The notes beneath the pieces were generated by a model that was given only the letters and a program-made list of their open reading frames with translations, did not search any database and was not told where the DNA came from. From an uncultured Nocardioides sp. (GTDB lineage Bacteria > Actinomycetota > Actinomycetes > Propionibacteriales > Nocardioidaceae), in the NCBI GenBank assembly GCA_947488515.1, contig CANKZF010000002.1, positions 406,294-470,293 on the forward strand: a DNA stretch of 64,000 bases. The letters are read 5' to 3'. Positions 19,637 through 59,948 of the stretch are shown piece by piece. How positions within the stretch are numbered: position 1 is the stretch's first letter; each line of letters begins with the position of its first letter. Both the position numbers and the translations under genes were made by a program.

Positions 19637-19646
19637 CCACCGCAAT

Positions 19647-19682: not shown

Positions 19683-19836
19683 AGGTCAGCGCGGCATTGG
19701 CCGCTTCCGAATGGTCCGCACCCCGACGTGACGCACGCCGCACCGGAGTCCTAGACTGTGGCCCGCGCCACTCGTGAAGCCGTTCACAAAGTCACATGCC
19801 CGTCTGGGCGGGCGCAGGTCCACCGGAAGGGAAGCG

Positions 19837-20196: not shown

Positions 20197-20282
20197 CCAG
20201 CCATGAGTGAGCGAAGCGAGCGATCAATCCAGCACAGCTGCCGCCGGGCCCCGCGGCAGCCCGGAGCGAAGCGAGGACTGTC
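20197..20282 (-). repeat. nuo junction repeat element, inverted or diverged copy (nuoA/nuoB spacer)
   Basis: On the minus strand it carries the family core CGCTTCGCTC twice and a GGGGCCCGG centre inside the palindrome CTGCCGC...GCGGCAG. This orientation is opposite to the other four copies. Confidence 0.55.
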
Positions 20283-20837
20283 GTGGGTATAGAAGAGAAG
20301 CTGCCGAGCGGCGTCCTGCTGACGACCGTCGAGGGCGTCGCGGGCTACATGCGCAAGGCGTCGTTCTGGCCCGCCACCTTCGGCCTGGCCTGCTGCGCCA
20401 TCGAGATGATGACCACCGGCGGCCCCAAGTACGACCTCGCCCGCTTCGGCATGGAGGTCTTCCGCGCCAGCCCGCGTCAGGCCGACCTGATGATCGTCGC
20501 CGGCCGGGTGAGCCAGAAGATGGCCCCGGTCCTGCGCCAGATCTACGACCAGATGCCCGAGCCCAAGTGGGTCCTCGCGATGGGTGTGTGCGCCTCGTCG
20601 GGCGGCATGTTCAACAACTACGCGGTCGTCCAGGGCGTCGACCACGTCGTGCCCGTCGACATGTACCTCCCCGGCTGCCCGCCGCGCCCGGAGATGCTCA
20701 TCGACGCGATCCTCAAGCTGCACGACCAGGTCCAGCAGACCAAGCTGGGCGCCAACCGTCGTGACGAGGTCGCCGAGCTCGAGACCGCCGCCCTGCGCGC
20801 GCTGCCCACCTCGGAGATGAAGGGCCTGCTGCGATGA
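20283..20837 (+). CDS. nuoB: NADH-quinone oxidoreductase subunit B
   Basis: [17 protein letters not shown]...[11 protein letters not shown]...GCPPRPE (N2 cluster cysteines). Confidence 0.95.
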
Positions 20838-21685
20838 GCGACAAGCCAGACGAGAAGCACGCCGGCAAGGCCCAGGACGAGTCGGACGACAAGACGGACA
20901 AGAACGAGGCGGCGCGTCCCGCCGAGGAGCGCAACCTCGAGAAGGCCAAGTCCGAGACCGGCACCGGCAGCGGCGTCGAGCAGCCCGCGCCCGAGCAGTC
21001 GCCGGAGAACCTCCCCGCACCGACCGGGGAGGTGCACGCGGTCGGCGAGCGCCGCGGCATGTTCGGCGTCAGCGGCACCGGCGACACCTCCGGCTACGGC
21101 GGCCTCGTCAGCGCGAAGGTCTTCCCGTCCCCGTCGCAGAAGCCCTACGGCGGCTGGTTCGACGACGTGGCGGGCGCGCTGGAGGCGCGGCTCGAGGCCA
21201 CCGACCTCACCTCGGCGATCGAGAGCGTCGTGGTGCACCGCGGCGAGATCACCTTCCACGTCCGCCGCGAGGACCTGCCCTTCGTGGCGCAGATGCTGCG
21301 TGACGACGAGGCGCTGCGCTTCGAGCTCTGCTCCGGTGTCAGCGGTGTCCACTACCCCGACGACCACGGTCGCGAGCTGCACGCCGTCTACCACCTGACG
21401 TCGATGACCCACAACCGCCTGATCCGCGTCGAGGTCACCGCACCGGACAGCGACCCCCACCTGCCGAGCCTGGTGAGCATCTACCCGACGCTCGACTGGC
21501 ACGAGCGCGAGACGTACGACATGTTCGGGCTGATCTTCGACGGTCACCCCGCTCTGACCCGGGTGCTCATGCCGGACGACTGGCCGGGCCACCCGCAGCG
21601 CAAGGACTACCCCCTCGGCGGCATCCCCGTGGAGTACAAGGGTGGGTCCATCCCTCCGCCGGACCAGCGCAGGAGCTACAACTGA
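20834..21685 (+). CDS. nuoC: NADH-quinone oxidoreductase subunit C (with a charged low-complexity N-terminal extension)
   Basis: ATGA overlap with nuoB. Conserved part runs from [20 protein letters not shown] to [20 protein letters not shown]. Confidence 0.9.
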
Positions 21686-21773
21686 TGGCACCCCACGACG
21701 TTCTTCGTCTCCTTCGCTTCGCTCCCCCGCCGAACAAAGGGGCGGGGACCCCGCCCCTTGGGAAGGGTCTGTC
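21686..21773 (+). repeat. nuo junction repeat element (nuoC/nuoD spacer) with a bridging mini-ORF 21685-21777
   Basis: CACCCCACGACGTTCTTCGTCTCCTTCGCTTCGCTCCCCCGCCGAACAAAGGGGCGGGGACCCCG.... A mini-frame runs from ATG 21685 (overlapping the nuoC TGA) to TGA 21775-21777 (overlapping the nuoD ATG 21774). Confidence 0.8.
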
Positions 21774-23114
21774 ATGACGACCGAACAGGACTTCTACGCC
21801 GCGCCCGGCGACACCAGCCAGGGCAAGGTCTTCACCGTCACCGGCCAGGACTGGGACTCGATCACGCAGAGCATCGGCGAGTCCGCCGAGGAGCGGGTCG
21901 TGGTCAACATGGGCCCGCAGCACCCGTCGACCCACGGGGTGCTCCGCCTCATCCTGGAGCTCGAGGGCGAGACGGTCACCGAGGCCCGCTGCGGCATCGG
22001 CTACCTGCACACGGGCATCGAGAAGAACATGGAGTACCGCTCCTGGGTGCAGGGCACGACGTTCTGCACCCGCATGGACTACCTCTCCCCGTTCTTCAAC
22101 GAGGCGACCTACGCGCTCGGCGTCGAGCGGCTGCTCGACATCGAGGACGACGTCCCGGAGAAGGCGCAGGTCATGCGGGTGCTCCTCATGGAGCTCAACC
22201 GGATGTCCTCCCACCTGGTCGCCATCGCGACCGGCGGGATGGAGATCGGCGCCCTGACCGTCATGACCATCGGCTTCCGCGAGCGTGAGCTCGTGCTCGA
22301 CCTGTTCGAGCTGATCACCGGCCTCCGGATGAACCACGCGTTCATCCGTCCCGGCGGCGTCGCCCAGGACCTGCCGCCCGGCGCGCTCGACGAGATCCGC
22401 GACTTCATCGCCCTGATGAGGAAGCGGCTGCCGGAGTACGCCGCCCTCTGCAACGCCAACCCGATCTTCAAGGGCCGTCTCGAGGGCGTCGGCCACCTCG
22501 ACCTCGCCGGGTGCATCGCGCTCGGGCTCACCGGTCCGGTGCTCCGCTCCACTGGCTACGCCTGGGACCTGCGCAAGACCCAGCCCTACTGCGGCTACGA
22601 GGACTACGACTTCGAGGTCCAGACCTGGGACACCGCCGACTCCTACGGCCGGTTCCGCATCCGACTCAACGAGATGTGGGAGTCGCTCAAGATCGTCGAG
22701 CAGGCCGCCGACCGCCTCGCCGGCCTCGAGGGCGCGCCCGTGATGGTGGGCGACAAGAAGATCGCGTGGCCCAGCCAGCTCGCGATCGGCAGCGACGGCA
22801 TGGGCAACAGCCTCGACCACATCCGCCACATCATGGGCGAGTCGATGGAGGCACTGATCCACCACTTCAAGCTGGTCACCGAGGGCTTCCGCGTCCCGGC
22901 CGGCCAGGCCTACGTCCCGATCGAGTCGCCCCGCGGCGAGCTGGGCGCCCACGTCGTCTCCGACGGCGGCACGCGTCCCTTCCGTGCGCACTTCCGCGAC
23001 CCGTCGTTCACCAACCTGCAGGCGACGAGCGTGATGAGCGAGGGCGGCATGGTCGCCGACGTCATCGTCGCCATCGCCTCGATCGACCCCGTCATGGGAG
23101 GAGTCGACCGATGA
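21774..23114 (+). CDS. nuoD: NADH-quinone oxidoreductase subunit D
   Basis: MTTEQDFY...[22 protein letters not shown]...; C-terminal [16 protein letters not shown]. Confidence 0.95.
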
Positions 23115-23184
23115 GTCACCCCACGAGCTTCTCGTCCTCCTCCGCTCCGCTCCTCCGCCCGACGACTTCGAGGGGACCCCGACG
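23115..23184 (+). repeat. nuo junction repeat element (nuoD/nuoE spacer) with a bridging mini-ORF 23111-23188
   Basis: CACCCCACGAGCTTCTCGTCCTCCTCCGCTCCGCTCCTCCGCCCGACGACTTCGAGGGGACCCCGA. Mini-[28 protein letters not shown] starts in ATGA at the nuoD stop and ends in ATGA at the nuoE start. CGATGAG is duplicated at both ends. Confidence 0.85.
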
Positions 23185-23907
23185 ATGAGCCACCAGCCCA
23201 ACGGGGCCGACGGCCTCGAGCGCGCCGGCCTGGGCGAGAAGACCTGGGCGGAGATGCGCGAGATCGCAGACCGCTACCCCGAGAAGCGCTCCGGCCTGCT
23301 GCCGATGCTGCACCTGGTGCAGTCGGTCGAGGGCCGGATCACGCCCGAGGGCATCGAGGCGTGCGCGGAGATCCTCGGGATCAGCGCCGCCGAGGTCAAC
23401 GGGGTCGCGACGTTCTACACGATGTACAAGCGCAAGCCGGTCGGCGACTACCACGTCGGCGTCTGCACCAACACGCTGTGCGCGGTCATGGGCGGCGACC
23501 TGATCTTCGAGCGGCTCAAGGACCACCTCGACGTCGGCAACGACGAGACCACCGAGGACGGCAAGATCACCCTCGAGCACGTCGAGTGCAACGCGGCCTG
23601 CGACTACGCCCCGGTGATGATGGTCAACTGGGAGTTCATGGACAACCAGACGCCCGAGTCGGCCGTCCAGGTCGTCGACGACCTGCGCGCCGGCCGGGAG
23701 GTCCACTCGACCCGCGGTCCGCGGCTGTGCACCTGGCGCGAGGCCGAGCGCGTGCTCGCCGGCTTCCCCGACGACCGCGCCGACGAGGGGCCGGCCGCCG
23801 GCCCCGCCTCGCTGGCCGGCCTGGCCGTCGCCCGCGAGAAGGGCTGGACGGCGGGCGCCGACAGGTCAGCCACGGAGTCCTCGGGAGCCAAGGGAGAGAG
23901 CAAGTGA
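23185..23907 (+). CDS. nuoE: NADH-quinone oxidoreductase subunit E
   Basis: 240 aa, RSGLLPMLHLVQ...VGVCTNTLCAVMGG...ECNAACDYAPVMMVN (2Fe-2S ligands). Confidence 0.95.
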   Translation: MSHQPNGADGLERAGLGEKTWAEMREIADRYPEKRSGLLPMLHLVQSVEGRITPEGIEACAEILGISAAEVNGVATFYTMYKRKPVGDYHVGVCTNTLCAVMGGDLIFERLKDHLDVGNDETTEDGKITLEHVECNAACDYAPVMMVNWEFMDNQTPESAVQVVDDLRAGREVHSTRGPRLCTWREAERVLAGFPDDRADEGPAAGPASLAGLAVAREKGWTAGADRSATESSGAKGESK

Positions 23908-25214
23908 CGGACACCCTGACCCCGGTCCTCACCGACAACTGGGACGCCGACCGCGCCTGGACGTTGGCGTCGTACGAGGAGCGCGGTGGCTACGCCGCCC
24001 TCGACAAGGCGTTCGCGATGACGCCCGACGCCGTGATCGACACCGTCAAGGACTCCGGTCTCCGCGGCCGCGGTGGCGCCGGCTTCCCGACGGGCATGAA
24101 GTGGGGCTTCATCCCGCAGGACAACCCGAGGCCGAAGTACCTCGTCGTCAACGCCGACGAGTCCGAGCCCGGGACGTGCAAGGACATCCCGCTGATGATG
24201 GCCAGCCCCCACACGCTGGTCGAGGGCGTCATCGTCAGCTCCTACGCCATCCGCGCCAACACCGCGTTCATCTACGTGCGCGGCGAGGTCCTCCACGTCA
24301 TCCGCCGCCTGCAGCGCGCGGTGCAGGAGGCCTACCTGGCCGGCCACCTCGGCAAGAACATCCACGGCTCGGGCTACGACCTCGACCTCATCGTGCACGC
24401 AGGTGCCGGCGCCTACATCTGCGGCGAGGAGACGGCCCTGCTCGAGGGCCTCGAGGGTCGCCGCGGCCAGCCGCGCCTGCGGCCGCCGTTCCCCGCCGTC
24501 GCCGGCCTCTACGCCAGCCCGACGGTGATCAACAACGTCGAGTCGATCGCGTCGGTGCCGAGCATCATCACCAACGGCGCCGCCTGGTTCGCCGGGATGG
24601 GCACCGAGAAGTCCAACGGCTTCGGCATCTTCAGCCTGTCGGGTCACGTGACGAACCCGGGCCAGTACGAGGCGCCGCTGGGCATCACCCTGCGTGAGCT
24701 CATCGACCTCGCCGGCGGGATGCGCGAGGGTCACGAGCTGAAGTTCTGGACCCCCGGCGGGTCGAGCACCCCGCTCCTGACGCCGGAGCACCTCGACGTG
24801 CCGCTCGACTTCGAGTCCGTCGGCGCTGCCGGCTCCATGCTGGGCACGCGCGCCCTGCAGCTCTTCGACGAGACCACCTGCGTGGTCCGCGCTGTGCTGC
24901 GGTGGACCGAGTTCTACAAGCACGAGTCCTGCGGCAAGTGCACCCCGTGCCGCGAGGGCACGTGGTGGCTGACGCAGACGATGGCCCGCCTCGAGAAGGG
25001 CCAGGGGGACGAGGGCGACCTCGACCTGCTGCTCGACCAGTGCGACAACATCCTGGGCCGCTCGTTCTGCGCCCTCGGCGACGGCGCGACCAGCCCCATC
25101 TCGAGCTCCATCCAGCACTTCCGCGACGAGTACCTCGCACACCTGACCCACGGCGGCTGCCCGTTCGACCCGGCCGCCTCGACCGCCTTCGCACCCGTGG
25201 GAGCCCCCGCATGA
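23904..25214 (+). CDS. nuoF: NADH-quinone oxidoreductase subunit F
   Basis: GTGA overlap with nuo[14 protein letters not shown] (FMN site), [27 protein letters not shown] (4Fe-4S). Confidence 0.95.
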
Positions 25215-27661
25215 GCACCACCGACAAGGCGCCCGAGAAGGTCGACACCGGCCTGGTCACCCTGACCATCGACGGCGTCCAGGTCAGCGTCCCGAAGGAC
25301 ACCCTGGTCATCCGCGCCGCCGAGCAGGTCGGGGTGCAGATCCCGCGCTTCTGCGACCACCCGCTGCTCGACCCGGTCGGCGCCTGCCGCCAGTGCCTGG
25401 TCGACATCCCCGACGCCGGCAACGGACGCGGCTTCCCCAAGCCGCAGGCCTCGTGCACCTTGCCGGTCGCGGAGGGTATGGTCGTCAACACCCAGGCGAC
25501 CAGCGAGGTCGCCGACAAGGCGCAGCAGGGCATCATGGAGTTCCTGCTCATCAACCACCCGCTCGACTGCCCGGTCTGCGACAAGGGCGGCGAGTGCCCC
25601 CTCCAGAACCAGGCCATGAGCAACGGCCGTGGCGAGAGCCGGTTCGCCGAGCGAGGCGGCATCAAGCGCACCTTCCCCAAGCCGATCAACATCTCCGCCC
25701 AGGTCCTGCTCGACCGCGAGCGCTGCGTGCTGTGCGCTCGCTGCACCCGCTTCTCCGAGCAGGTCGCCGGCGACCCCTTCATCGCCCTCGCCGAGCGTGG
25801 CGCGCTGCAGCAGGTCGCGATCTACGAGCGCGAGCCCTACGAGAGCTACTTCTCCGGCAACGCGATCCAGATCTGCCCGGTAGGTGCGCTCACGTCGGCC
25901 GACTACCGCTTCCGCTCGCGTCCCTTCGACCTCGTCTCCACGCCGGGTGTCGCCGAGCACGACGCCTGTGGTGCCGCGATCCGCGTGGACCACCGCCGCG
26001 GCAAGGTCATGCGGCGCCTCGCCGGCAACGACCCCGAGGTCAACGAGGAGTGGATCAGCGACAAGGACCGCTTCGCGTTCCGCTACGCCCAGGTCGCCGA
26101 CCGGATCACCTACCCGCAGGTCCGCGAGGACGGCGAGCTGCGCCCCGCGTCGTGGACCGAGGCGTTCGCCGTCGCCGCCCGCGGCCTCCGCGACGCCGGC
26201 GCTGCGGCCGTGCTCACCGGCGGCCGGCTCACCGCCGAGGACGCCTACGCCTACGCGAAGTTCGCCCGGGTCTCCCTCGGCACCAACGACATCGACTTCC
26301 GAGCCCGCCCGCACACCGCGGAGGAGGCGAGCTTCCTCGCCTCCCACGTCGCGCTGTCCGGTGACGTCACCTACGCCGACCTCGAGGCCGCGCCCGTCGT
26401 GGTGCTGCTCGGCCTCGAGCCCGAGGACGAGGCGGCCACGCTCTTCCTGCGGCTGCGCAAGGCCGCCCAGCGCGGTCGTACGCAGGTCGTGTCGGTGGCG
26501 TCCCACGCCTCGCGCGGACTGACGAAGATGAACGGCCGGCTCGTCCCGGCCGCTCCCGGCACCGAGGTCGAGGTGATCGGCTCCCTCAAGGACGCCGAGC
26601 ACGGCGTCACCAAGGACGCCGTCATCCTGGTCGGCGAGCGCCTGGCCCAGACGCACGGCGCGCTCAGCGCCGCCGCCGACCTCGCGGCCGGCACCGGTGC
26701 CCGCATCGCCTGGGTGCCGCGACGTGCGGGTGACCGCGGCGCGGTCGAGGCCGGCGCGCTGCCCAACCTGCTGCCCGGCGGACGTCCGCTCACCGAGGCG
26801 TCCGCGCGCGTCGACCTGGGCGCCGCGTGGGGTGCGGACACCCTCCCGGCCAAGGTCGGCCGTGACGGCAACGCGATCGTCGCGGCGCTGGCCAAGGGTG
26901 ACCTCGGCGGCCTCGTCGTCGGTGGGGTCGACCCCGACGACACCGCCGACCCGGCCGCGTTCCGCGCCGCCCTCGACGCCGCCCGCTTCGTCGTCAGCCT
27001 CGAGCTGCGCGAGACCGACGTGACCCGCGTGGCCGACGTCGTCCTGCCGGTGGCCCCGGTCGCCGACAAGGCCGGCACCTTCGTCACGTGGGACGGACGT
27101 GCGAGGTCCTTCGACGCGGTGTTCGCCAACCCGGCCTCGCTGCCCGACCTGCGGGTCCTGTCGGGCATCGCCGACGAGCTCGCCGCGATCGGTCACGGAC
27201 GCCCGCTCGGCTTCCGCACGGTCGCGGAGGTGCGCGACGAGATGCAGTCTCTCGGCCCGTGGGACGGTGCGCGCCCGGCGCTCGACGCCGGCAAGGCGCC
27301 GAAGCCGGTCAAGGCGCCCAGGAAGGGCGAGACCGCCTTCGCCCTCGCCACCTGGAAGCAGCTCGTCGACCTCGGCTCGATGCAGGACGGCGAGGAGCAC
27401 CTGCGGGCCACCGCCCGCAGGCCGGTCGCCCGCGTCAGCCGCGCGTCGTACGAGTCCGTGCTCGGCATGCTCGAGGCACAGCCCGGCGGCGACCAGCTCG
27501 TCACGGTCACCGGTGACCGCGGCAGCGTGACGCTGCCCGTCGTGGTCGCCGACATGCCCGACGGCGTCGTCTGGGTCCCGGCCCGGTCCTTCGGCCGCGG
27601 TGTCCTCGCCGAGCTGGCCTCGCCCGGCAGCACGGTCACCCTGAAGGGAGCCACCTCATGA
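25211..27661 (+). CDS. nuoG: NADH-quinone oxidoreductase subunit G
   Basis: ATGA overlap with nuo[14 protein letters not shown]...[17 protein letters not shown]...[18 protein letters not shown], 816 aa. Confidence 0.95.
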
Positions 27662-29001
27662 TGCAGCTCGCTCCGCTGGCGGCGGACCTGCCCGACCCGG
27701 GTCTGGCCGCCTTCGGTCACGACCCGTGGTGGGTGATCCTGCTCAAGGCCGTGTTCATCTTCCTGATCCTGGTGCTGCTGACGCTGTTCAACATCTGGTT
27801 CGAGCGCCGCGTGGTCGCCCGGATGCAGCACCGCGTCGGCCCCAACGTTCACGGCCCCTTCGGCCTCCTGCAGTCGCTCGCCGACGGCGTGAAGCTCGCG
27901 CTCAAGGAGGACATCGTCCCCAAGGCGGCCGACAAGGTCGTCTTCCTCATCGCGCCGGTCATCGCCGTCGTTCCCGCCTTCGTCACGTGGGCGGTCATCC
28001 CGCTCGGCCCCGTGGTCAACTTCTTCGGGTACGAGACCCCGCTGCAGCTCACCGACATGCCGGTGGCGGTGCTCTTCATGCTCGCCATCGCCTCGATCGG
28101 CATCTACGGCATCGTCCTCGGCGGCTGGTCCTCCGGCTCGACGTACTCCCTGTTGGGGGGCCTGCGATCGAGCGCGCAGATGATCTCCTACGAGGTCGCG
28201 ATGGGCCTCGCGCTCGTGGCGGTCTTCCTCTACGCCGGGTCGATGTCGACGTCGGAGATCGTCGCCGCGCAGGACCGGCTGTGGTTCGGCCTGATCCTGC
28301 TGCCGTCGTTCGTCATCTACGTGATCTCGATGGTCGGCGAGACCAACCGTGCCCCCTTCGACCTCCCCGAGGCCGAGGGCGAGCTGGTCGGCGGCTTCCA
28401 CACCGAGTACTCCAGCCTGAAGTTCGCGCTGTTCTTCCTGGCCGAGTACATCAACCTCGCGACCGTGTCGGCCATCGCCACGACGCTGTTCCTGGGCGGC
28501 TGGGCGGCACCGTGGGGCATCGAGAACGTGTGGGAGGGCGCCAACAGCGGCTACTGGCCGCTGCTCTGGTTCTTCGGCAAGGTCTTCTGCTTCATCTTCC
28601 TGTTCGTCTGGCTGCGCGGCTCGCTGCCCCGCATGCGCTACGACCAGTTCATGGCGCTGGGCTGGAAGGTCCTGATCCCCGTCTCGCTGGCCTGGATCGT
28701 GGCCGTCGCGACCATCCGTGTCATCTCGCTCGAGGGCAACATCAACCGCACCTACCTCGTCGCCGCGATCGCCGTCCTGCTCGTCCTCACCGTGGCGCTG
28801 ATGTTCGTCGGTGACCGGGGCGGCAAGTCCGACGAGGAGAGCGCGGTCGAGGCGAGCGACGAGCCGCACGACGCGTTCGCCGGCGGCTTCCCCGTGCCGC
28901 CGATGCCCGCGGGTGGCGCAGTGCGCGGCGGCGCCGCGCCGCTGACGTTCGCCCAGAGCCGCACCACCGTCACCGCTTCAGCGGAGGAGAACCATGAGTG
29001 A
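27658..29001 (+). CDS. nuoH: NADH-quinone oxidoreductase subunit H
   Basis: 447-aa polytopic protein, [15 protein letters not shown]...[26 protein letters not shown]. Confidence 0.95.
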
Positions 29002-29551
29002 GTCCCCTCAGTCCGAGCAGGGGTCCAAGGGCATCAAGGAGAGCCTCTGGGACCCGATCGCCGGGTTCGGCGTCACCTTCAGGACGATGTTCAAGAAGGT
29101 CGTCACCGAGCAGTACCCGTTCGAGAAGCTCCCGACGGCACCGCGGTTCCACGGCCGCCACCAGCTCAACCGCTGGCCCGACGGCCTGGAGAAGTGCATC
29201 GGCTGCGAGCTGTGCGCGTGGGCCTGCCCGGCCGACGCCATCTACGTGGAGGGCGCGTCCAACGTCGACCTCCCGGACGGCTCGGGACGCTTCAGCCCCG
29301 GCGAGCGCTACGGCCGCGTCTACCAGATCAACTACCTGCGCTGCATCCTGTGCGGGCTCTGCATCGAGGCGTGCCCGACCCGCGCGCTCACGATGACCAA
29401 CGAGTACGAGCTGGCCGACAACAACCGCGCCGACCTCATCTACGAGAAGTCCGACCTGCTGGCCCCGCTGCTGCCGGGCATGGAGGAGCCGCCGCACGCG
29501 ATGCGGCTCGGCGACGACGAGGGCGACTACTACCGGGGGGCCACGAGATGA
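28994..29551 (+). CDS. nuoI: NADH-quinone oxidoreductase subunit I
   Basis: Two 4Fe-4S ferredoxin motifs, [12 protein letters not shown] and [12 protein letters not shown]. Confidence 0.95.
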
Positions 29552-29618
29552 ACCACCCCACGAAGTTCTCGTCCTCCTCCGCTGCGCTCCTCCGCACGAC
29601 AACTCCGAGGGGACCCCG
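29552..29618 (+). repeat. nuo junction repeat element (nuoI/nuoJ spacer) with a bridging mini-ORF 29548-29622
   Basis: CACCCCACGAAGTTCTCGTCCTCCTCCGCTGCGCTCCTCCGCACGACAACTCCGAGGGGACCCCGA. Mini-[27 protein letters not shown] runs from ATGA at the nuoI stop to ATGA at the nuoJ start. GATGA is duplicated at both ends. Confidence 0.85.
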
Positions 29619-30446
29619 ATGACGTTCTGGATCCTGGCCCCGATCATGGTGGCCGCCGCGCTGGGCATCCTCTTCGTCCGCAAGGCCGTGCACGCCGCGC
29701 TGCTGCTCGCCGTGGTGATGATCAGCCTGGCGTTCCTCTACGCCGTGCTCGACGCCCCGTTCCTCTTCGCGGTGCAGATCATCGTCTACACCGGCGCGAT
29801 CCTCATGCTGTTCCTCTTCGTGATGATGCTGATCGGCGTCGACGCGACCGACTCCGTCGTGGAGACGATCCGCGGCCAGCGCGTGATGGCGGTCGTCCTC
29901 GGCCTGCTCTTCGGCGTCGTGCTGGTCGTCGGCATCAGCCAGGTCACGCTCGGCACGGTGGTCGGGCTCGACGAGGCCAACGCCGGCGGCAACGTCCCGG
30001 CGATCGCCAACATCCTGTTCTCCCGCTACGTGTTCGCCTTCGAGGCGACCAGCGCCCTGCTCATCACCGCCGCGCTCGGCGCGATGGTGCTCGCCCACCG
30101 CGAGCGCCTGACCCCGAAGCAGACGCAGGCCGACCAGGCCGCCCAGCGCATGCGCGACTACGCCGAGCACGGCAAGCACCTCGGCCCGCTGCCCTCGCCG
30201 GGCGTCTACGCCCGCCACAACGCGGTGGACACCCCGGCCCTGCTGCCCGACGGCACCGCCGCCGAGTCGTCGGTCTCCCGGGTGCTCGCCGCCCGCGGCA
30301 CGGTCCGCTCGGCTCCCGCGCTCGCCGACGACATCGACGACGTACGCCGCCAGATCGCCGGTCTGGACGGGAAGAGCCCTGCCGCGATGCCCGAGACCTC
30401 GGGCAAGGCCGGCGCGCCCGCCGCGACGGAAGAGGACGTGAAGTGA
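29619..30446 (+). CDS. nuoJ: NADH-quinone oxidoreductase subunit J
   Basis: MTFWILAPIMVAAALGILFVRKAVHAALLLAVVMISLAFLY...; 275 aa with a hydrophilic C-terminal tail. Confidence 0.9.
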   Translation: MTFWILAPIMVAAALGILFVRKAVHAALLLAVVMISLAFLYAVLDAPFLFAVQIIVYTGAILMLFLFVMMLIGVDATDSVVETIRGQRVMAVVLGLLFGVVLVVGISQVTLGTVVGLDEANAGGNVPAIANILFSRYVFAFEATSALLITAALGAMVLAHRERLTPKQTQADQAAQRMRDYAEHGKHLGPLPSPGVYARHNAVDTPALLPDGTAAESSVSRVLAARGTVRSAPALADDIDDVRRQIAGLDGKSPAAMPETSGKAGAPAATEEDVK

Positions 30447-30545
30447 CTGAGTACGTAGTCGCCACCCCAGCAACTTCTTCGCTCCTCCGCTTCGCTCCTC
30501 CGCGAACAACTCGCCGGGGACCCCGACGCTCGATGAGGTCGAACC
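30447..30545 (+). repeat. nuo junction repeat element (nuoJ/nuoK spacer) flanked by a 16-nt duplication
   Basis: CACCCCAGCAACTTCTTCGCTCCTCCGCTTCGCTCCTCCGCGAACAACTCGCCGGGGACCCCGA. TGACTGAGTACGTAGT occurs at 30444-30459 and again at 30547-30562. Mini-ORF 30443-30553. Confidence 0.85.
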
Positions 30546-30839
30546 TTGACTGAGTACGTAGTTCTTTCGGCGATCCTGTTCACGATCGGCTGCGTGGGTG
30601 TCCTCACGCGCCGCAACGCCATCGTGGTGTTCATGTGCGTCGAGCTGATGCTGAACGCCTGCAACCTGGCGTTCGTGGCCTTCGCCCGGCAGCACGGCAA
30701 CCTCGACGGCCAGATCACCGCCTTCTTCGTGATGGTGGTGGCTGCTGCCGAGGTCGTGATCGGGCTCGCGATCATCATGACCATCTTCCGCACCCGACGC
30801 TCGGCCTCGGTCGACGACGCCAGCCTGCTGAAGTACTGA
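30546..30839 (+). CDS. nuoK: NADH-quinone oxidoreductase subunit K (TTG start)
   Basis: [38 protein letters not shown]..., 97 aa. The only in-frame start after the element is TTG 30546. Confidence 0.9.
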
Positions 30840-30849
30840 GGGAGCGCTC

Positions 30850-32844
30850 GTGAACCTGTTGTCCCACTCAGTCCTCGCGGCCGGCCTGCCGATGGCCGAG
30901 GAGGGCGCCCACGCGCCCGTGATCGCGCCCGACATGGGCGCGGGCGGTGTGTTCGACCTGCTCTGGCTGGTCATCGCGCTCCCGGTGCTCGGCGCGGTCC
31001 TGCTGCTCGGCGTCGCGCCGTTCCTGCCGTCCTCGCTCAGGGCCGTCGCCGACAAGCACGGCCACCTCCTCGGCACCGCGATGGCGGCGCTGTCCTTCGT
31101 GCTCAGCCTCGTGCTGTTCCTAGCGCTGGTGGGCCGCGACGCCGAGTCGCGACAGGTCGGCCAGCAGCTGTGGACGTGGTTCGAGACCGGCTCGCTGACG
31201 GTCGGCATGGACCTGCTCTACGACCAGCTGGCCGCGCTGTTCCTGCTCCTCATCACCGGCGTCGGGACGCTGATCCACGTCTACGCCATCGGCTACATGG
31301 AGCACGACCCGCGTCGCCGCCGCTTCTTCGGCTACCTCAACCTGTTCGTCGCGGCGATGCTCACGCTGATCCTGTCGGCCAACTTCGTGGGCCTGTTCCT
31401 GGGCTGGGAGGGCGTCGGCCTGGCGTCGTACCTGCTCATCGGCTTCTGGCAGCACAAGCCGTCGGCCGCTGCGGCCGCCAAGAAGGCGTTCGTCATCAAC
31501 CGTGTCGGTGACATCGGCCTGTCGCTGGCGATCGCGCTGATGTTCGCCACCTTCGGCACCGCCGACTTCGGCGCCGTGAGCGAGCTCGCGGGGGAGGCGA
31601 GCCAGGGCACGCTCAACGCCCTCGGCCTGCTGCTCCTGCTCGGTGCGTGCGGCAAGTCCGCGCAGGTGCCGCTGCAGGCGTGGCTCCTCGACGCGATGGA
31701 GGGCCCGACCCCGGTCTCGGCCCTCATCCACGCCGCGACGATGGTCACGGCCGGCGTCTACCTCGTCGTCCGGTCCAACTTCATCTTCGATCTCACGCCC
31801 GTCGCGCAGACCGCGGTCGTCGTCGTCGCCACCGTCACGCTCCTCTGGGGTGCGATCCTCGGCTGCGCCAAGGACGACATCAAGAAGGCGCTGGCCGGCT
31901 CGACGATGAGCCAGATCGGCTACATGATGCTCGCCGCCGGCCTCGGCCCGGTGGGCTACCCGTTCGCGATCTTCCACCTGCTGACGCACGGCTTCTTCAA
32001 GGCCAACATGTTCCTCGGCGCCGGTTCGGTCATGCACGGGATGAACGACGACGTCGACATGCGTCATTACGGCGCGCTCAACAAGGCGATGCCGGTCACC
32101 TTCCTGACCTTTGCGATGGGCTACCTCGCGATCATCGGCTTCCCGGGGTTCTCCGGCTTCTGGTCCAAGGACCGGATCATCGAGACTGCGCTGGCCGAGA
32201 ACCTGATCATCGGCATCCTGGCGCTGATCGGTGCGGGCATCACCGGCTTCTACATGACCCGCCTCATGCTGATGACGTTCTTCGGCGAGAAGCGCTGGGA
32301 GAAGGACGTCCACCCGCACGAGTCGCCCAAGGTGATGACGGTCCCGCTGATCGTGCTGGCCGCGCTGTCGGTCCTCGGTGGCCTCCTGCTGTTCAACGAC
32401 TGGATCGTCACCTGGCTCGAGCCGGTGACCGGTCACGTCGAGCACCACGAGCCGCCGCTGCCGGCGATCGTGATCACGCTGATCATCACCGCCGTCGTCG
32501 CGATCGGCGTCGCCGCGGCCTGGTTCCTCGTGGGCAGGCGCGCGGTCCCGCGCGAGGCCCCGCAGGACGTGTCGTTCGCGACCCGCGCCGCTCGCGCCGA
32601 CCTCTACGGTGACGCAATCAACGACGCGGTCGTCGTACGCCCCGGAGCCGCGCTCGTCGGTGGTCTGGCCACCTTCGACCGCGTCGGCGTCGACGGCGTC
32701 GTCGAGGGTGGTTCGTCCGCCGTCGGCGGCCTGTCCACCACGATGCGTCGAGTCCAGAACGGCTTCGTCCGCTCCTACGCCCTGTCCCTCCTCGGTGGCG
32801 CCCTGCTGGTCGTCCTCGCTCTGCTGGCGGTGAACCTCGGATGA
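30850..32844 (+). CDS. nuoL: NADH-quinone oxidoreductase subunit L
   Basis: 664-aa antiporter-like subunit, [29 protein letters not shown]...[20 protein letters not shown]. Confidence 0.95.
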
Positions 32845-34328
32845 TCCTGACTGTCCTGATCCTGCTGCCGCTCGTCGGCGCCCTCGTCACGGCCTTCGTG
32901 CCGGCCGCGGTCGCCCGGCTGGTCGGCCTCGGCTTCGCCGCCGCGACCCTGGTCGCCGGCATCGTGGTCGCTGCGCAGTACAACGCCGGCGACGGCATGC
33001 AGCTCACCGAGACCCGCACGTGGATCGAGTCGCTCGGCGTCCACTACGCGCTCGGCGTCGACGGCCTCGGCCTGCTGATGGTCCTGCTCACGGTCGTCCT
33101 CGTGCCGATCGTGCTGCTGGCCGGCTGGCACGAGTCGGAGGCCCCGGGCAACAACGGCGCGAAGGCCTTCTTCGCCTGGACCCTGGCCCTCGAGGCGATG
33201 TCGCTGGCGGTCTTCACCGCCACCGACGTGCTGCTCTTCTACGTCGTGTTCGAGGCGACGCTGATCCCGGCCTACTTCCTGATCGGCGGCTTCGGTCGAG
33301 CCGGCCGGGGCCGTGCCGCGACCAAGTTCCTCATCTACCAGCTCGCCGGCGGGCTGATCATGCTCGCCTCGGTGATCGGGCTCTACGTCGTCTCCGCGAA
33401 CGCGGGCAACCCGAGCTTCCTGATCAGCGACCTCGCTGCGCTCGACATCGACGAGACCACGCAGCGCTGGCTGTTCGTCGGCTTCTTCATCGCCTTCGCG
33501 ATCAAGGCGCCGATGTTCCCGGTCCACACCTGGCTGGCCGACACGACGGAGAAGGCGACCACCGGCACCTCGGTCCTGCTGGTCTGCATCCTCGACAAGA
33601 TCGGCACGTTCGGCATGCTGCGGTTCTGCCTCGGACTGCTGCCCGACGCCTCGCAGTGGGCGACGCCGGTCGTGATCGTGCTCGCGCTCATCTCGATCAT
33701 CTACGGCGCGCTGGTCGCCATCGGGCAGGACGACGTCCTGCGCCTGATCGGTCTCACGTCGCTCTCGCACTTCGGCTTCATCGTGCTGGGCATCTTCGTG
33801 TTCAGCTCGAACGGCAGCTCCGGCGCGATCCTCTACATGGTCAACCACGGCATCGCGACGGCGCTGATGTTCCTCGTCGCCGGGTTCCTGATCCGTCGCA
33901 CCGGCACCGCGTCCATCCGTGAGATGGGCGGGGTGGAGAAGGCAGCCCCGCTCCTGGCCGGCTTCTTCCTCGTCGGTGGCCTCGCCGCGGCCGGCCTCCC
34001 CGGCCTGTCGCCGTTCGTCTCCGAGATGCTCGTCATCATCGCCGCGTTCGAGCACCACTGGCTGGCCGGCTCGGTCGCCGTCCTCGCGATCGTCCTCGCC
34101 GCGTTCTACGCGCTCTGGATGTACCAGCGGACGATGACCGGTCCCGATCGGGTCGGCATGGCGCCGGTGGCCGACCTCGATCGGCGTGAGGTGGGCATCC
34201 TCGCTCCGCTCCTGCTCGCGCTCCTGCTGTTCGGCTTCTACCCGATGCCGCTGCTCGACGTCATCAACCCGTTCGTCCACGAGTCGCTCGCGAGTGTGGG
34301 CATCGGCCAGGAGGGTGGTCCCCAGTGA
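32841..34328 (+). CDS. nuoM: NADH-quinone oxidoreductase subunit M
   Basis: 495-aa antiporter-like subunit, [21 protein letters not shown] overlap with nuoL. Confidence 0.95.
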
Positions 34329-35917
34329 CCGAGTTCGTGAAGCCCAGCGTCGAGTACTTCGAGCTCTGGCCGCTGCTGGCCGTCTTCGGTGTCGCCTGCC
34401 TCGGCGTCGTCGTGGAGGCGTTCCTCCCGCGCTCCATCCGCTACACCGCCCAGGTCGTGCTGGCCCTCGGTGGCCTCGTGCTCGCCCTCGTCGGCGTGGT
34501 GCTGGTCGCGCAGCGGGTCCAGACGTACGACGACGGCGCCGCGCGCGGCGTGCTCGCCGTCGGCGGGACGATCGCCGTCGACGGCCCGAGCCTCTTCATC
34601 TGGGGCCTGGTTCTCGCGCTGGCCATCGCCGGCGTGCTGCTCTTCGCCGAGCGGCACCTCGACGGCGGGGTGTCGGCGTTCGCCGGCCAGGCCGCCGCCG
34701 TGCCGGGCACGGACGCGGAGACCGCGTCGATCGCGGCCAACCGCGAGCACACCGAGGTCTACCCGCTGATGATGTTCGCGGTCTTCGGCATGATGCTCTT
34801 CCCGGCGGCCAACGACCTGCTGACGATGTTCGTCGGCCTCGAGGTCCTGTCGCTGCCGCTCTACCTGCTGAGCGGCCTCGCGCGCCGCCGCCGCCTGCTC
34901 AGCCAGGAGGCCGCACTCAAGTACTTCCTCCTCGGCGCGTTCTCCTCGGGCTTCTTCCTCTACGGCGCGGCCCTGCTCTACGGCTTCGCCGGCGCCCTGG
35001 ACTTCGCCTCGATCAACGAGGCGGTGCGCAACGACGTGGGCAGCCAGTCCCTGCTGCTCATCGGCACGGGCCTGCTCTCGGTCGGTCTGCTGTTCAAGGT
35101 CGGCGCCGTGCCGTTCCAGGCGTGGACGCCCGACGTCTACCAGGGCGCCCCGACCCCGGTCACCGCCTTCATGGCGGCCGGCACCAAGGTCGCGGCCTTC
35201 GGCGCGATCATGCGCCTGTTCTACGTCGCCCTCGGCGCGGACCGCTGGTCGTGGCAGCCGATGCTGTGGATCATCGCCGTGCTGTCGATGTTCGTCGGTG
35301 CCGTGCTGGCCATCACCCAGACCGACATCAAGCGCCTGCTGGCCTACTCGTCGGTCGCCCACACCGGCTTCATCCTCACCGGCGTCCTCGGCCTGCAGGC
35401 TGCCGACCAGCTGGCCGTCGGCGAGATCAGCTCGGTCCAGGCCGTGCTCTTCTACCTCGCGACCTACGGGTTCGCGACGATCGGCGCGTTCGCGGTGGTC
35501 AGCCTGGTCCGTGACGGCGCCGGTGAGACCACCGCGATCGACCGGTGGGCCGGCCTCGGCAAGGAGTCGCCGGTGGTGGCTGCGGTGTTCGCCTTCTTCC
35601 TGCTGGCGATGGCGGGCATCCCGCTCACGTCCGGCTTCGTGGGCAAGCTCGCAGTCTTCTCCGTGGCCCTCGCCGCGGGCGCATGGCCCGTCGTCGTGGC
35701 GGCCGTGATCGCGAGCATCATCGCGGCGTTCCTCTACGTCCGGGTCATCAAGGTCATGTACTTCGACAAGCCGATCGGCGACGGTCCGAGCGTGGCTTAC
35801 CCGTCCGTGCTCACCGCGACGACCATCGCCGTCGGTGCCGCGATCACCCTCGTCCTCGGCGTGCTGCCGGGGCCGGTGCTCGATCTCGCGGCCGTTGCGG
35901 GAGAATTCATCAGGTGA
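34325..35917 (+). CDS. nuoN: NADH-quinone oxidoreductase subunit N
   Basis: 530-aa antiporter-like subunit, KVGAVPFQAWTPDVYQGAPTPVTAFMAAGTK. GTGA overlap with nuoM. Confidence 0.95.
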   Translation: MTEFVKPSVEYFELWPLLAVFGVACLGVVVEAFLPRSIRYTAQVVLALGGLVLALVGVVLVAQRVQTYDDGAARGVLAVGGTIAVDGPSLFIWGLVLALAIAGVLLFAERHLDGGVSAFAGQAAAVPGTDAETASIAANREHTEVYPLMMFAVFGMMLFPAANDLLTMFVGLEVLSLPLYLLSGLARRRRLLSQEAALKYFLLGAFSSGFFLYGAALLYGFAGALDFASINEAVRNDVGSQSLLLIGTGLLSVGLLFKVGAVPFQAWTPDVYQGAPTPVTAFMAAGTKVAAFGAIMRLFYVALGADRWSWQPMLWIIAVLSMFVGAVLAITQTDIKRLLAYSSVAHTGFILTGVLGLQAADQLAVGEISSVQAVLFYLATYGFATIGAFAVVSLVRDGAGETTAIDRWAGLGKESPVVAAVFAFFLLAMAGIPLTSGFVGKLAVFSVALAAGAWPVVVAAVIASIIAAFLYVRVIKVMYFDKPIGDGPSVAYPSVLTATTIAVGAAITLVLGVLPGPVLDLAAVAGEFIR

Positions 35918-36912
35918 CCGACTCGCCCCTTGCAATGCCCGTCGTCGACGCCGCTCTCGAGCAGCGGCTGCTCGAGCGGATGGCGCGCATCGAGGTGATG
36001 CTCGCCGACCACTGCCGGGGGCGTGCGCAGTTCGTGTCGGAGGCCGCGGCGCACCTGATGATGGCCGGTGGCAAACGCTTCCGACCGCTGCTCGTGCTGC
36101 TCGCCGCTGAGGCGGGTCCGGACCCCGACGCCGACGCGGTCGACACGGCCGCCTGCGTCGTCGAGCTGACCCACGTCGCCTCGCTCTACCACGACGACGT
36201 GATGGACGAGGCGTCCCTGCGGCGCGGCGCCCGCACCGCCAACGCCCGCTGGGACAACAACGTCGCGATCCTCACCGGCGACTTCCTGTTCGGTCGCTCC
36301 TCGGAGCTCACCGCCGAGCTGGGGCCCGAGGCGGTCCTCATCCAGGCGCGCACCTTCACCCGGCTCGTCGAGGGCCAGATCATGGAGACCGTCCCGCCCG
36401 GACCGGGTGAGGACCCGCTGGCGCACTACCTCGACGTCGTCGCGGGCAAGACGGGCTCGTTGATCGCCACGTCCGCCCGCTACGGCGCGATGTTCAGCGG
36501 CGCCCGCCCGGACGTCGTCGAGGCCCTGAGCTCCTACGGCGAGATCGTCGGCTCGGCCTTCCAGCTGACCGACGACATCCTCGACATCGCCTCCGAGTCC
36601 GACACGTCCGGCAAGACGCCCGGCACCGACCTGCGCGAGGGCGTACCCACCCTCCCCGTCCTCATGGCCCAGGCCTCCACCGACCCGGCCGACGCCCGGC
36701 TGCTGTCGCTCCTCGGCCGCCCGCTGACCGACGACGCCGAGCACGCCGAGGCCCTCGAGCTCATGCGCCGCCACCCGGCCATGGACCAGGCGCGCGACCA
36801 CGTGCTGGCCGAGGCCGCCCGCGCCAAGAAGCTCCTCGAGGCCCTCGACCCGGGCCCCGTGCGTACGGCGCTGGAGTCCTTCGCCGACATCGTCGCGACC
36901 CGCTCGTCCTGA
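35914..36912 (+). CDS. trans-Polyprenyl diphosphate synthase (menaquinone side-chain synthase type)
   Basis: GTGA overlap with the nuoN stop. First Asp-rich motif LYHDDVMDE and second FQLTDDILD, about 332 aa. Confidence 0.9.
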   Translation: MTDSPLAMPVVDAALEQRLLERMARIEVMLADHCRGRAQFVSEAAAHLMMAGGKRFRPLLVLLAAEAGPDPDADAVDTAACVVELTHVASLYHDDVMDEASLRRGARTANARWDNNVAILTGDFLFGRSSELTAELGPEAVLIQARTFTRLVEGQIMETVPPGPGEDPLAHYLDVVAGKTGSLIATSARYGAMFSGARPDVVEALSSYGEIVGSAFQLTDDILDIASESDTSGKTPGTDLREGVPTLPVLMAQASTDPADARLLSLLGRPLTDDAEHAEALELMRRHPAMDQARDHVLAEAARAKKLLEALDPGPVRTALESFADIVATRSS

Positions 36913-37050
36913 CCTCGCCGCTGGGCGGTGCCTGAGCCACGTTCCACGAGCTCGGGATGTGGGTGGGTCACCGCTGGTCGGCGTGTCGTATGCCGCCTCG
37001 CCGCTGGGCGGTGCCTGACCCACGTTCCACGAGCTCGGGATGTGGGTGGG
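36913..37050. repeat. Tandem direct duplication (55-bp unit, 83-bp period) between convergent genes
   Basis: CCTCGCCGCTGGGCGGTGCCTGA(G/C)CCACGTTCCACGAGCTCGGGATGTGGGTGGG occurs at 36913-36967 and 36996-37050, with a single mismatch. Confidence 0.9.
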
Positions 37051-59932: not shown

Positions 59933-59948
59933 GGCGCCCGCTCTCGGG

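Follow-up and report, generated by a model that had tools for sequence, protein, structure and literature searches.

A MIRU-like insertion in the nuoJ/nuoK overlap of Nocardioides and a predicted TTG start for NuoK

In the 64,000-nt stretch of DNA from an uncultured Nocardioides sp. that was analysed here (the window), the nuoJ and nuoK genes are separated by 87 inserted nucleotides, made up of a 66-nt hairpin repeat and a 21-nt tail and flanked by two copies of a 16-nt direct repeat (Table 1). In the explanation that we consider probable, an old insertion resembling the mycobacterial MIRU entered the GTGA overlap between the two genes, moved the start of nuoK to a TTG codon and left its translation to a relay through a bridging ORF, while the identity of the flanking repeats arose secondarily and the element itself belongs to a family that spreads as selfish DNA.

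Table 1 Features of the nuoJ/nuoK junction and the other copies of the element family in the window
Feature	Positions	Strand	Basis or content
nuoJ CDS, 275 aa	29619..30446	+	ORF list; TGA stop (30444-30446) opens repeat copy 1
Bridging mini-ORF, 36 codons	30443..30553	+	Ancestral nuoK GTG to TGA 30551-30553; reads through the element
Direct repeat copy 1, TGACTGAGTACGTAGT	30444..30459	+	nuoJ stop plus 13 nt copying nuoK codons 2-6
Repeat element core	30460..30525	+	nhmmer family profile, E=1.5e-13; left arm 30465-30481, CT-rich loop 30482-30502, right arm 30503-30519, then ACCCCG
21-nt tail of the inserted DNA, ACGCTCGATGAGGTCGAACCT+T	30526..30546	+	Missing from element-free junctions; conserved in all six carriers
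nuoK, 97 aa, TTG start	30546..30839	+	ORF list; full-length alignment with a solved chain; Pfam PF00420
Direct repeat copy 2, TGACTGAGTACGTAGT	30547..30562	+	Bases 2-17 of functional nuoK
nuoI/nuoJ copy	29548..29622	+	Profile and ORFs; 67-nt insert (29552-29618) between two ATGA, 24-aa bridging ORF
nuoD/nuoE copy	23111..23188	+	ATGA...ATGA, 25-aa bridging ORF, hairpin decayed
nuoC/nuoD copy	21683..21777	+	Left TGATG, 20-nt spacer, right ATGA, 30-aa bridging ORF, hairpin decayed

The nuoJ/nuoK junction and the start of NuoK

The sequence TGACTGAGTACGTAGT has exactly two sites on the + strand, one on either side of the inserted bases, and no third site was found elsewhere even with two mismatches allowed; it was matched in none of 100 dinucleotide shuffles, and its analytic expectation is 3e-5. 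The allele is no assembly artefact, because contigs from four independent soil-metagenome runs, spanning copy 1 plus the element as well as the element plus copy 2, agree on it and carry the perfect repeats without differences. In relatives that lack the element, nuoJ runs straight into nuoK through a GTGA or ATGA (...GAGGAGGACGTGAA-GTGA-CC(C/G)AGTACGT...), and the duplicated target, GTGACC(C/G)AGTACGT(C/G/A)GT, is present once in them and twice in carriers, around the 87-nt insert. The preliminary description of this DNA had expected such direct joining in relatives, and had claimed both that a 16-nt piece of the junction was duplicated around the element and that its first copy was the ancestral GTGA junction; the exact pair of repeats and the overlap in element-free genomes agree with it on each point. 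In the other carriers, copy 1 reads TGACCCA(G/C)TACGT(C/A)(G/A/C)(T/A), resembling the junction of the element-free relatives, and copy 2 reads TGACTGA(G/A)TACGTTGT. Pfam PF00499 (Oxidored_q3) matches the orthologous NuoJ that lies 5' of an identical NuoK in other genomes.

Of 95 nuoK loci, 58 begin with GTG, 30 with ATG and seven with TTG. All seven TTG loci are carriers of the nuoJ/nuoK insertion, and TTG was seen in none of the 88 element-free loci. The tail holds an in-frame TGA (30534-30536) that closes the nuoK frame upstream of the TTG, a likely Shine-Dalgarno sequence, GAGG (30535-30538), 7 nt 5' of the TTG, and the first base of the TTG itself; both the GAGG and this T are inside the inserted DNA and outside the duplicated target, a placement that the preliminary description had overlooked. 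Each of the six carrier genomes keeps TTG and GAGG. Further into the frame, the first canonical start is a GTG at codon 17; in no carrier would another in-frame start preserve the first membrane helix, and upstream of the TTG the frame offers no start in any carrier. The 97-aa NuoK product is full length when aligned with solved NuoK chains (residues 3-97 against residues 5-99 of the M. smegmatis complex I subunit K, 8e9g_K, E=1.2e-43), and the PF00420 match was obtained on an identical product. Judged from these reading frames, NuoK must now initiate at the TTG, the sole start predicted to give a full-length product, and the shift from GTG to TTG that had been proposed from the window alone is supported by the restriction of TTG to carriers, the in-frame TGA and the full-length alignment. 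A search for RNA or ribosome-profiling runs for the nuoJ/nuoK locus returned DNA metagenomes only, and no stable mRNA structure was predicted around the TTG, the MFE of 30420-30600 being no better than that of shuffles (z=-0.63).

That NuoK instead starts later, at the GTG of codon 17, that it uses a non-canonical start codon, or that the gene is impaired, seems to us most improbable. TTG is a weak start codon and is backed here by gene prediction alone; however, a later start would lose residues 1-16, whose counterparts in the solved chains lie in the first helix region and which are conserved at the protein level in all carriers. TTG plus GAGG is kept across six genomes, and the nuoK ORF is intact, its DNA being 94-97% identical to that of relatives. 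Very doubtful, too, is the view that the duplication originally covered ~31 nt (the Shine-Dalgarno sequence, the codons for the C-terminus of NuoJ, the stop/start and five codons of nuoK), under which TTGA would be a diverged GTGA and its T would not be inserted DNA. The tail, GAAGAGGTCG(T/A)(G/A)CCT-TGA, does resemble GAAGAGGACGTGAAG-TGA upstream of copy 1, but the in-register identity is just 9-10/21, a resemblance that shared Shine-Dalgarno placement accounts for; among 806 unrelated NTGA junctions, at least 10 identities are reached in 5% and at least 9 in 14%. As its identity falls within the top 5-14% of unrelated junctions, the extended 31-nt duplication including the Shine-Dalgarno sequence was rejected. 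A donor locus for the tail was sought among species-representative genomes, where the scan gave the nuoJ/nuoK loci of four species only and otherwise chance matches within coding sequences, and in two metagenome scans, which gave nothing.

Hairpin, bridging ORFs and the element family

The window contains four copies of the family, all on the + strand and all at junctions of the nuo operon. The nuoI/nuoJ site is a clean ATGA duplication, since empty sites read ...ACGCG-ATGA-CG and filled ones ATGA-67 nt-ATGA. The core is 63-67 nt long. Among 75 distinct copies, the left tetranucleotide is ATGA or GTGA in 57, where it contains the stop of the upstream gene just 5' of CACCCC, and the right one is NTGA in 49. 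The first bases of the left and right tetranucleotides are correlated (Fisher p=0.0066), with 35 ATGA/ATGA and three GTGA/GTGA pairs. Compared with this family norm of a 4-nt repeat, the 16-nt repeat and 21-nt tail of the nuoJ/nuoK copy are atypical. L116, L195, L175, L110 and L109 have tandem arrays of 2-3 units and the window has none, and at two loci (L166, L206) NuoJ continues into the element and so gains 24 residues at its C-terminus. A tandem repeat at 59948-60196 was considered as a further member and rejected, as it is not of the same family.

The family stem is 14 bp long and supported by covariation in 41 members, with compensatory changes at 10 pairs and covariation values that none of 500 shuffles reached. 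Its two strands are not equivalent: where one has conserved A.C mismatches, the other has G.T pairs, the mean folding energy is -30.5 kcal/mol antisense vs -20.6 kcal/mol sense, and the nuoJ/nuoK hairpin forms on the antisense strand only. Orthologous nuoJ/nuoK stems show double compensatory changes, from C.C to A-T (L174, L207, L202) and from A-T to G-C (L202). The CT-rich loop sits inside the motif CTCCTCCGCTTCGCTCCTCCGC (30482-30503), and on the sense strand it carries two CCUCC motifs that are anti-Shine-Dalgarno-like. No promoter or terminator was found in the insert, and a comparison of 19000-37000 with Rfam yielded nothing at E<=1.

Bridging mini-ORFs characterise the family in general, a point absent from the preliminary description; unit length is 2 mod 3, with an exactly bridging ORF, in 40 of 47 copies. 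For the nuoJ/nuoK copy, the claim that the old GTG opens a 36-codon mini-ORF repeating the first six residues of NuoK proved accurate. This ORF starts at the old GTG in its GTGA overlap with the nuoJ stop, with the Shine-Dalgarno sequence GGAAGAGGA upstream, its first six codons encode residues identical to those of nuoK, and its end falls 5 nt beyond the first TTG base and not within an NTGA. The same 36-codon ORF is open in five of the six carrier genomes, the sixth (L105) having 29 codons and a stop 15 nt before the TTG.

Termination-reinitiation at overlapping stop and start codons is a known form of translational coupling (PMC6728339, PMC12548453). As in that system, the nuoJ stop overlaps the start of the bridge (GTGA) and the bridge ends within 8 nt of where nuoK begins (TTGACTGA), but unlike ordinary coupling, the putative relay would take two steps and run via a parasitic ORF. 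The nuoJ stop, the old Shine-Dalgarno sequence and the old GTG are all retained at the upstream repeat copy, and the downstream copy supplies the real nuoK N-terminus. In the relay, ribosomes leaving nuoJ would re-initiate on the bridging ORF, as they formerly did on nuoK, unwind the weak sense-strand structure, terminate at the TGA of the mini-ORF and then re-initiate at the TTG with the aid of the GAGG. The coupling of nuoK to nuoJ would thus be retained through the relay. The nuoJ/nuoK copy is a concrete, testable case of such putative two-step coupling, and also a natural translation experiment, in which the start codon and ribosome-binding site have been replaced by inserted DNA that is retained in six genomes. 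The family as a whole may spread as selfish DNA into NTGA overlaps, with survival of those copies that leave both genes translatable.

Age of the insertion and origin of the perfect repeat

Judged from its occurrence at the same place in several related genomes, the nuoJ/nuoK insertion is old and not fresh. Its six carriers are the genome analysed here, Nocardioides sp. Soil774 (L202, identical to L251), L207, L174, N. zhouii (L169) and L105; the insertion, down to its boundaries, tail and TTG, is therefore shared by at least five further Nocardioides genomes. Between the two repeat copies, 16/16 positions match in this genome, compared with 10-13/16 elsewhere among the carriers. The codon pair ACT GAG is found in both copies here and in copy 2 of every carrier, the examined element-free junctions all having ACC, and L202 and L207 have GTAGT in copy 1. 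The repeat sequence here is therefore a mosaic, in which CTGAG follows copy 2 of the other carriers and GTAGT follows copy 1 of those two genomes. Because the repeat is a mosaic of two diverged copies, its 16/16 identity is most likely secondary, through later homogenisation by gene conversion or unequal exchange between the short repeats. The earlier claim that the perfect repeat directly records the insertion event is not supported, given the orthologous insertions with their diverged repeats and the mosaic, and perfect identity did not serve here as a sign of recent insertion. For annotation this carries a warning, namely that perfect flanking repeats do not necessarily mark recent insertions.

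The relationships of the genomes complicate this history. Carriers do not group apart from element-free genomes on a 1-kb nuoK-nuoL tree but are interspersed with them, and therefore a single old insertion needs several precise losses or recombinational spread. The flanks here are closest to genomes without the nuoJ/nuoK insertion, at 93-95% identity in the tree segment. A sliding-window comparison, in which recombinational import of the junction was looked for, gave no local rise in similarity toward carriers beside the insert, and to either side of it the flanks remain most similar to L206, L002 and L200.

If the insertion had entered this lineage recently and the perfect 16-nt repeat were its untouched target-site duplication, both that perfection and the lack of the insertion in the closest relatives by flanks (L206, L002, L200) would fit, and the element-free junction GTGACTGAGTACGTAGTTCTT / GTGACTGAGTACGTAGT would be expected in relatives. 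We regard such a history as quite unlikely, given that five other genomes hold the same insert with identical boundaries and 21-nt tail but diverged repeats, that no other location of the tail was found that could be its source, and that ACT GAG is a state of carriers and not of the examined element-free junctions, with GTAGT matching copy 1 of L202 and L207. The host could also have maintained an old insertion for a function of its RNA or DNA structure in the nuo operon, beyond tolerated selfish DNA, for example with a role in the relative translation, processing or stability of long nuo mRNA segments. The location of all four window copies in this operon, the compensatory stem changes that followed insertion in the orthologous nuoJ/nuoK copies and the two CCUCC motifs in the sense-strand loop would fit such a role. 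Against it, the presence of each copy varies among close relatives, the hairpin is lost in two of the four window copies, folding is far better on the antisense strand (-30.5 vs -20.6 kcal/mol), and neither an Rfam family match nor a terminator-like site was found; we consider host use of this kind unlikely.

Relation to MIRU and other small repeats

MIRU-type repeats have been used for decades in M. tuberculosis typing. The name stands for mycobacterial interspersed repetitive units and reportedly goes back to Supply et al. 1997, and we know of no account of the mechanism by which they move or of their effect on operon translation. A MIRU is an intra-operon unit with a tetranucleotide direct repeat and an internal small ORF (PMC3184786, PMC12548453). 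The Nocardioides family likewise consists of 40-100-bp units in fixed orientation between co-transcribed genes, and in both families there is a tetranucleotide direct repeat ATGA that is single in empty sites, an internal GC-rich inverted repeat, an ORF overlapping the flanking stop and start codons (in all four window copies), a unit length of 2 mod 3 and the formation of tandem arrays (for the Nocardioides family, in relatives). At senX3-regX3, for example, MIRU sites are empty in L262 and filled in L263, L264, L266 and L267, with the ATGA repeat, the 2 mod 3 length and a bridging ORF. The two differ in their hosts, Nocardioidaceae vs Mycobacterium, and the nuoJ/nuoK copy departs from the tetranucleotide rule, with its 16-nt repeat, 21-nt tail and TTG start. 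The nhmmer family profile gave no match to MIRU at E<=10 in 82 loci, comprising 80 RegX3-anchored loci (19 mycobacterial) plus L049 and L064 and including the four filled senX3-regX3 sites, which hold a clear 53-nt MIRU. A 16/18 motif, GAGCGAAGCG--GAGGAG, is shared with MIRU (2 of 2000 shuffles reach its score, p about 0.001), although it sits on the opposite strand relative to the genes.

The family is undescribed in the searched literature and occurs mainly in Nocardioidaceae. A broader interpretation, quite possible and offered tentatively, is that it is an undescribed family of mobile hairpins, analogous and perhaps distantly related to MIRU, that specifically colonises NTGA overlaps, has its folded active form on the antisense strand and survives by means of the relay ORF and a Shine-Dalgarno sequence, with the nuoJ/nuoK copy kept across species under compensatory changes and concerted evolution of its repeats. 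If this is true, the nuoJ/nuoK element has captured the ribosome-binding site and the first start-codon base of a core respiratory subunit, and the many empty and filled sites could expose the mechanism that moves MIRU-type repeats. With its polymorphic sites, covariation-backed stem and clear strand asymmetry, the Nocardioides family is tractable for a search for the mover.

Other small bacterial repeats, namely MITEs, Rickettsia palindromic elements, RUP/BOX and ERIC, have been reviewed (PMC3184786). Like these, the elements described here are short, non-autonomous inverted-repeat units that are co-transcribed and at times read in frame, but their target is a stop-start overlap and not a coding sequence or free intergenic site; in comparison with the terminal inverted repeats of MITEs, the arms of the Nocardioides element form an internal hairpin. 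The palindromes of REP/RAYT and those derived from IS200/IS605 are moved as single-stranded hairpins, at tetra- or pentanucleotide targets and without target duplication. As a lead for comparison, the strand-asymmetric hairpin and the fixed tetranucleotide adjoining the element resemble theirs, whereas ATGA is duplicated here, which argues against membership of that family.

The nuoJ/nuoK junction and the start of nuoK

The preliminary description reported a 16-nt repeat on either side of the element, and the exact 16-mer TGACTGAGTACGTAGT indeed occurs only twice in the whole window, at 30444-30459 (copy 1) and 30547-30562 (copy 2), both on the + strand. No extra match with up to two mismatches was found in the window (0 in 100 shuffles), and the analytic chance expectation for the repeat is 3e-5. 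The copies enclose an insert with a core of CGCCACCCC-AGCAACTTCTTCG-CTCCTCCGCTTCGCTCCTCCGC-GAACAACTCGCC-GGGGACCCCG and a tail of ACGCTCGATGAGGTCGAACCT + T. The ORF map agrees with that given earlier: nuoJ, a GTG-initiated mini-ORF running through the element from the nuoJ stop to the nuoK start (the bridging ORF), and a TTG-initiated nuoK. Since copy 1 plus element and element plus copy 2 were both reproduced in contigs of four independent soil-metagenome runs, with the repeats unchanged, an assembly artefact does not account for the arrangement.

Features of the nuo gene junctions in the window
Feature	Position	Strand	Remarks
nuoC/D copy	21683-21777	same strand as other copies	30-codon bridging ORF; hairpin lost
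nuoD/E copy	23111-23188	same strand as other copies	25-codon bridging ORF; hairpin lost
nuoI/J copy	29548-29622	same strand as other copies	24-codon bridging ORF; clean ATGA duplication
nuoJ	29619-30446	+	ORF map
Bridging ORF at nuoJ/K	30443-30553	+	ORF map; 36 codons, GTG start
nuoJ/K insert	30460-30546	+	87 nt: 66-nt repeat core + 21-nt tail
nuoK	30546-30839	+	ORF map; 97 codons, TTG start

Because a TGA lies in the nuoK frame at 30534-36, TTG 30546 is the earliest possible nuoK start; in frame, the next canonical start (GTG) follows at codon 17, and any start downstream of the TTG would cost NuoK its first helix region. Solved NuoK chains align with the 97-aa product over its whole length (8e9g_K residues 5-99, E=1e-43), and GAGG (30535-38) is found 7 nt 5' of the TTG. 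Among 95 loci surveyed, nuoK starts with GTG in 58, ATG in 30 and TTG in 7, and all seven TTG loci, representing six genomes (L202 and L251 being one record), carry the same nuoJ/K insertion; no carrier has an in-frame start 5' of the TTG. The TTG start proposed earlier thus appears to hold, judging from the upstream TGA, the full-length alignment and the TTG in all carriers. The T of this codon and the GAGG belong to the inserted tail, outside the duplicated target, and the repeat begins at the TGA. On this reading the insert would supply both the ribosome-binding site and the start base of nuoK.

NuoK relatives were collected from 80 genomes plus 10 further contigs encoding an identical NuoK protein. 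In three of them without the element (L001, L002 and L008) the genes are joined directly as ...GAGGAGGACGTGAA-GTGA-CCCAGTACGTCGTCCTC, and in four others (L200, L201, L204 and L205) the junction reads GTGACCGAGTACGT. The ancestral GTGA overlap of nuoJ and nuoK that had been predicted is therefore seen in close relatives lacking the element.

The element family and its likeness to mycobacterial MIRUs

The window holds four core copies on the same strand, all at nuo gene junctions and each with a bridging ORF; a family profile found no further copies in the 64 kb, and no Rfam family matched the element. The nuoI/J copy is polymorphic among relatives, with an empty site of ...ACGCG-ATGA-CGTTCTGG and a filled site of ATGA-67 nt-ATGA. 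Family copies, gathered by an exact loop-motif scan of species-representative genomes, were matched in Nocardioides, Marmoricola, Aeromicrobium, Pseudactinotalea and related MAGs, and several genomes contain tandem arrays of 2-3 units. In 75 distinct full-length copies, ATGA or GTGA stands directly 5' of CACCCC in 57, and ATGA, GTGA or TTGA directly 3' of GGGGACCCCG in 49; the first bases of the two tetranucleotides are correlated (ATGA/ATGA 35, GTGA/GTGA 3, mixed 4; Fisher p=0.0066). The unit length is 2 mod 3 (mostly 71 or 74 nt) in 40 of the 47 copies with NTGA on both sides (binomial 3e-13, although lengths are inherited and the copies hence not independent events), and each of these 40 has an ORF from the left NTG to the TGA of the right NTGA.

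A 14-bp stem formed by the arms shows compensatory changes at 10 pairs, with 93.7% of cells paired; none of 500 shuffles reached these values, and slid controls gave far lower ones. Where the sense (mRNA) strand has two conserved A.C mismatches, the antisense strand has G.T pairs and consequently forms a much more stable hairpin (mean RNA MFE of family copies -30.5 vs -20.6 kcal/mol). Folded as DNA, the nuoJ/K copy gives -13.4 for the antisense strand (full hairpin) vs -6.6 for the sense strand (no hairpin). Given this difference of ~10 kcal/mol for the family, the selected structure may be antisense-strand DNA or antisense RNA rather than mRNA. The strand asymmetry was seen in the family alignment and at 30460-30526 and 29551-29618 in the window. 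Double compensatory stem changes, C.C to A-T and A-T to G-C, are seen between orthologous nuoJ/K copies (L202, L207 and L174 vs L169, L105 and the window); such changes after insertion hint that the hairpin is still constrained, or that other copies acted as conversion donors. A longer, different palindromic family with the central motif CTCCTCCGCTTCGCTCCTCCGC, not sited at stop-start overlaps, was observed in Nocardia (L088, L114, L121-L123, L128, L158 and others), Antrihabitans (L108) and Embleya (L190).

With its unusually long repeat of 16 nt and its 21-nt tail, the nuoJ/K copy departs from the 4-nt repeat of the family. An original duplication of ~31 nt including the Shine-Dalgarno was considered and rejected, as its in-register identity of 9-10/21 falls in the top 5-14% of 806 unrelated NTGA junctions and is not significant. 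A tail scan matched only nuoJ/K, in four species-representative genomes, and two metagenome scans gave no match to the tail. In N. baculatus (L175, 7479-7640) two tandem units lie between 8-nt direct repeats of TGACCGAC, and TTG is the start codon of the downstream gene; the joint occurrence of a long repeat and a downstream TTG in these two cases may be coincidence.

Among known systems, the mycobacterial MIRU comes closest. The senX3-regX3 intergenic regions of environmental mycobacteria were fetched with a RegX3 query, which served only as a lead and was confirmed by tblastn at 98-99% identity. At positions ~1440-1500 these regions are empty in two loci (L262, L265) and filled in four (L263, L264, L266, L267), with a 53-nt unit between two ATGA (ATGA and GTGA in L264) that holds an 18-aa bridging ORF (MTRAYDDAERSDEEESRP in L267). 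MIRUs are described as 40-100-bp operon units with tetranucleotide direct repeats, internal GC-rich inverted repeats and tandem arrays, whose ORFs overlap the flanking stop and start codons (PMC3184786, PMC2734929, PMC12548453). The Nocardioides family shares this design, including ATGA and the 2 mod 3 unit length, but its profile had no matches in 82 scanned loci, MIRU-bearing ones included. The only sequence link is GAGCGAAGCG--GAGGAG, present in MIRU and in the reverse complement of the Nocardioides loop (2/2000 shuffles equalled the score); if the two families were related, their orientation relative to the genes would be opposite. No description of the Nocardioides family was found in the literature searched, and we file it as a putative new variant that works like MIRU, not a member by sequence.

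A proposed translation relay

Alongside the observed anatomy, the conservation of the TTG and the bridging ORF, and the family design, we propose a mechanism for nuoK translation. Because copy 1 keeps the old nuoK initiation signals intact (the Shine-Dalgarno and the GTG overlapping the nuoJ stop), the bridging ORF should be translated as nuoK formerly was. Its ribosomes would traverse the element, whose sense-strand structure is weak, terminate at 30551-53, at most 8 nt from the TTG, and then re-initiate at TTG 30546 aided by the GAGG. Translational coupling by termination-reinitiation, described for overlapping gene pairs (PMC6728339, PMC12548453), would here be stretched to a two-step relay. 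Neither a sigma-70-like promoter nor an intrinsic terminator was found in the nuoJ/K region.

History of the insertion and of its flanking repeats

The window shares its insertion with Nocardioides sp. Soil774 (L202=L251), N. zhouii (L169), the MAGs L174 and L105, and the metagenome contig L207, and the carriers agree in left and right boundaries, tail and cTTGACTGA. In the other carriers, copy 1 reads TGACCCA(G/C)TACGT..., resembling the element-free junction, and copy 2 reads TGACTGA(G/A)TACGTTGT, so that the two match at only 10-13 of 16 positions, compared with 16/16 in the window. The window 16-mer is a composite of CTGAG, as found in copy 2 of every carrier, and GTAGT, as found in copy 1 of L202 and L207; relative to an L202-like ancestor all four inter-copy differences are erased, with the copy 2 base retained at three and the copy 1 base at one, and ACT GAG is absent from every element-free junction examined. 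The simplest account of the 16/16 identity is secondary homogenisation via short-tract gene conversion or unequal exchange, the latter of the kind that also gives rise to tandem arrays. The flanking repeats thus appear to undergo concerted evolution, and their identity is no date for the insertion. What stands of the preliminary description is the observation, the GTGA ancestry and the TTG start; its view of the repeat as a direct, pristine record of the insertion does not, given the diverged copies of other carriers and the mosaic in the window. A CC-to-TG change in copy 2, common to all carriers, keeps Thr, results in Glu (frequent in relatives) and makes the TGA at which the bridging ORF terminates, 5 nt past the first base of the TTG.

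Carriers and element-free genomes interleave in a neighbour-joining tree of ~1 kb of nuoK-nuoL, where the window is closest to L206 (95%), which has a different copy at the junction, and to L002 and L200 (both 94%), which have none. A sliding-window comparison found no local rise in similarity to carriers beside the insert. The tree and this lack of a local rise therefore lead to a choice between repeated precise loss of the insertion, which the 16-nt repeats would favour, and its spread by short-patch recombination.

The nuoJ/K junction is an insertion hot spot and a recurrent landing site. The different copies in N. sediminis (L166, 6030-6100) and L206 (666-735) lack the upstream stop, and NuoJ reads through the element, gaining 24 and 25 C-terminal residues, respectively, before ATGA/GTGA. 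Further independent ATGA...ATGA copies occur in L022 and L080, and other repeats lie just 5' of nuoK in the distant actinobacteria Mycolicibacterium brisbanense (L049; three tandem units of TCTGCGGACGCGAGGAGCA) and Kribbella sp. (L064; a purine-rich GAGCGAGCGGAGCGAGCGAA element). Elsewhere in the window, an unrelated palindromic intergenic repeat (GGTGGCGGCGGATTGCAGG...GATGTGCCGCCACC) occurs in tandem at 59948-60196, with at least three units of 72-73 nt, and the segments 2262-3397 and 6586-7715, 69-77% identical over >1 kb and 4318-4324 nt apart, are probably tandem paralogous genes.
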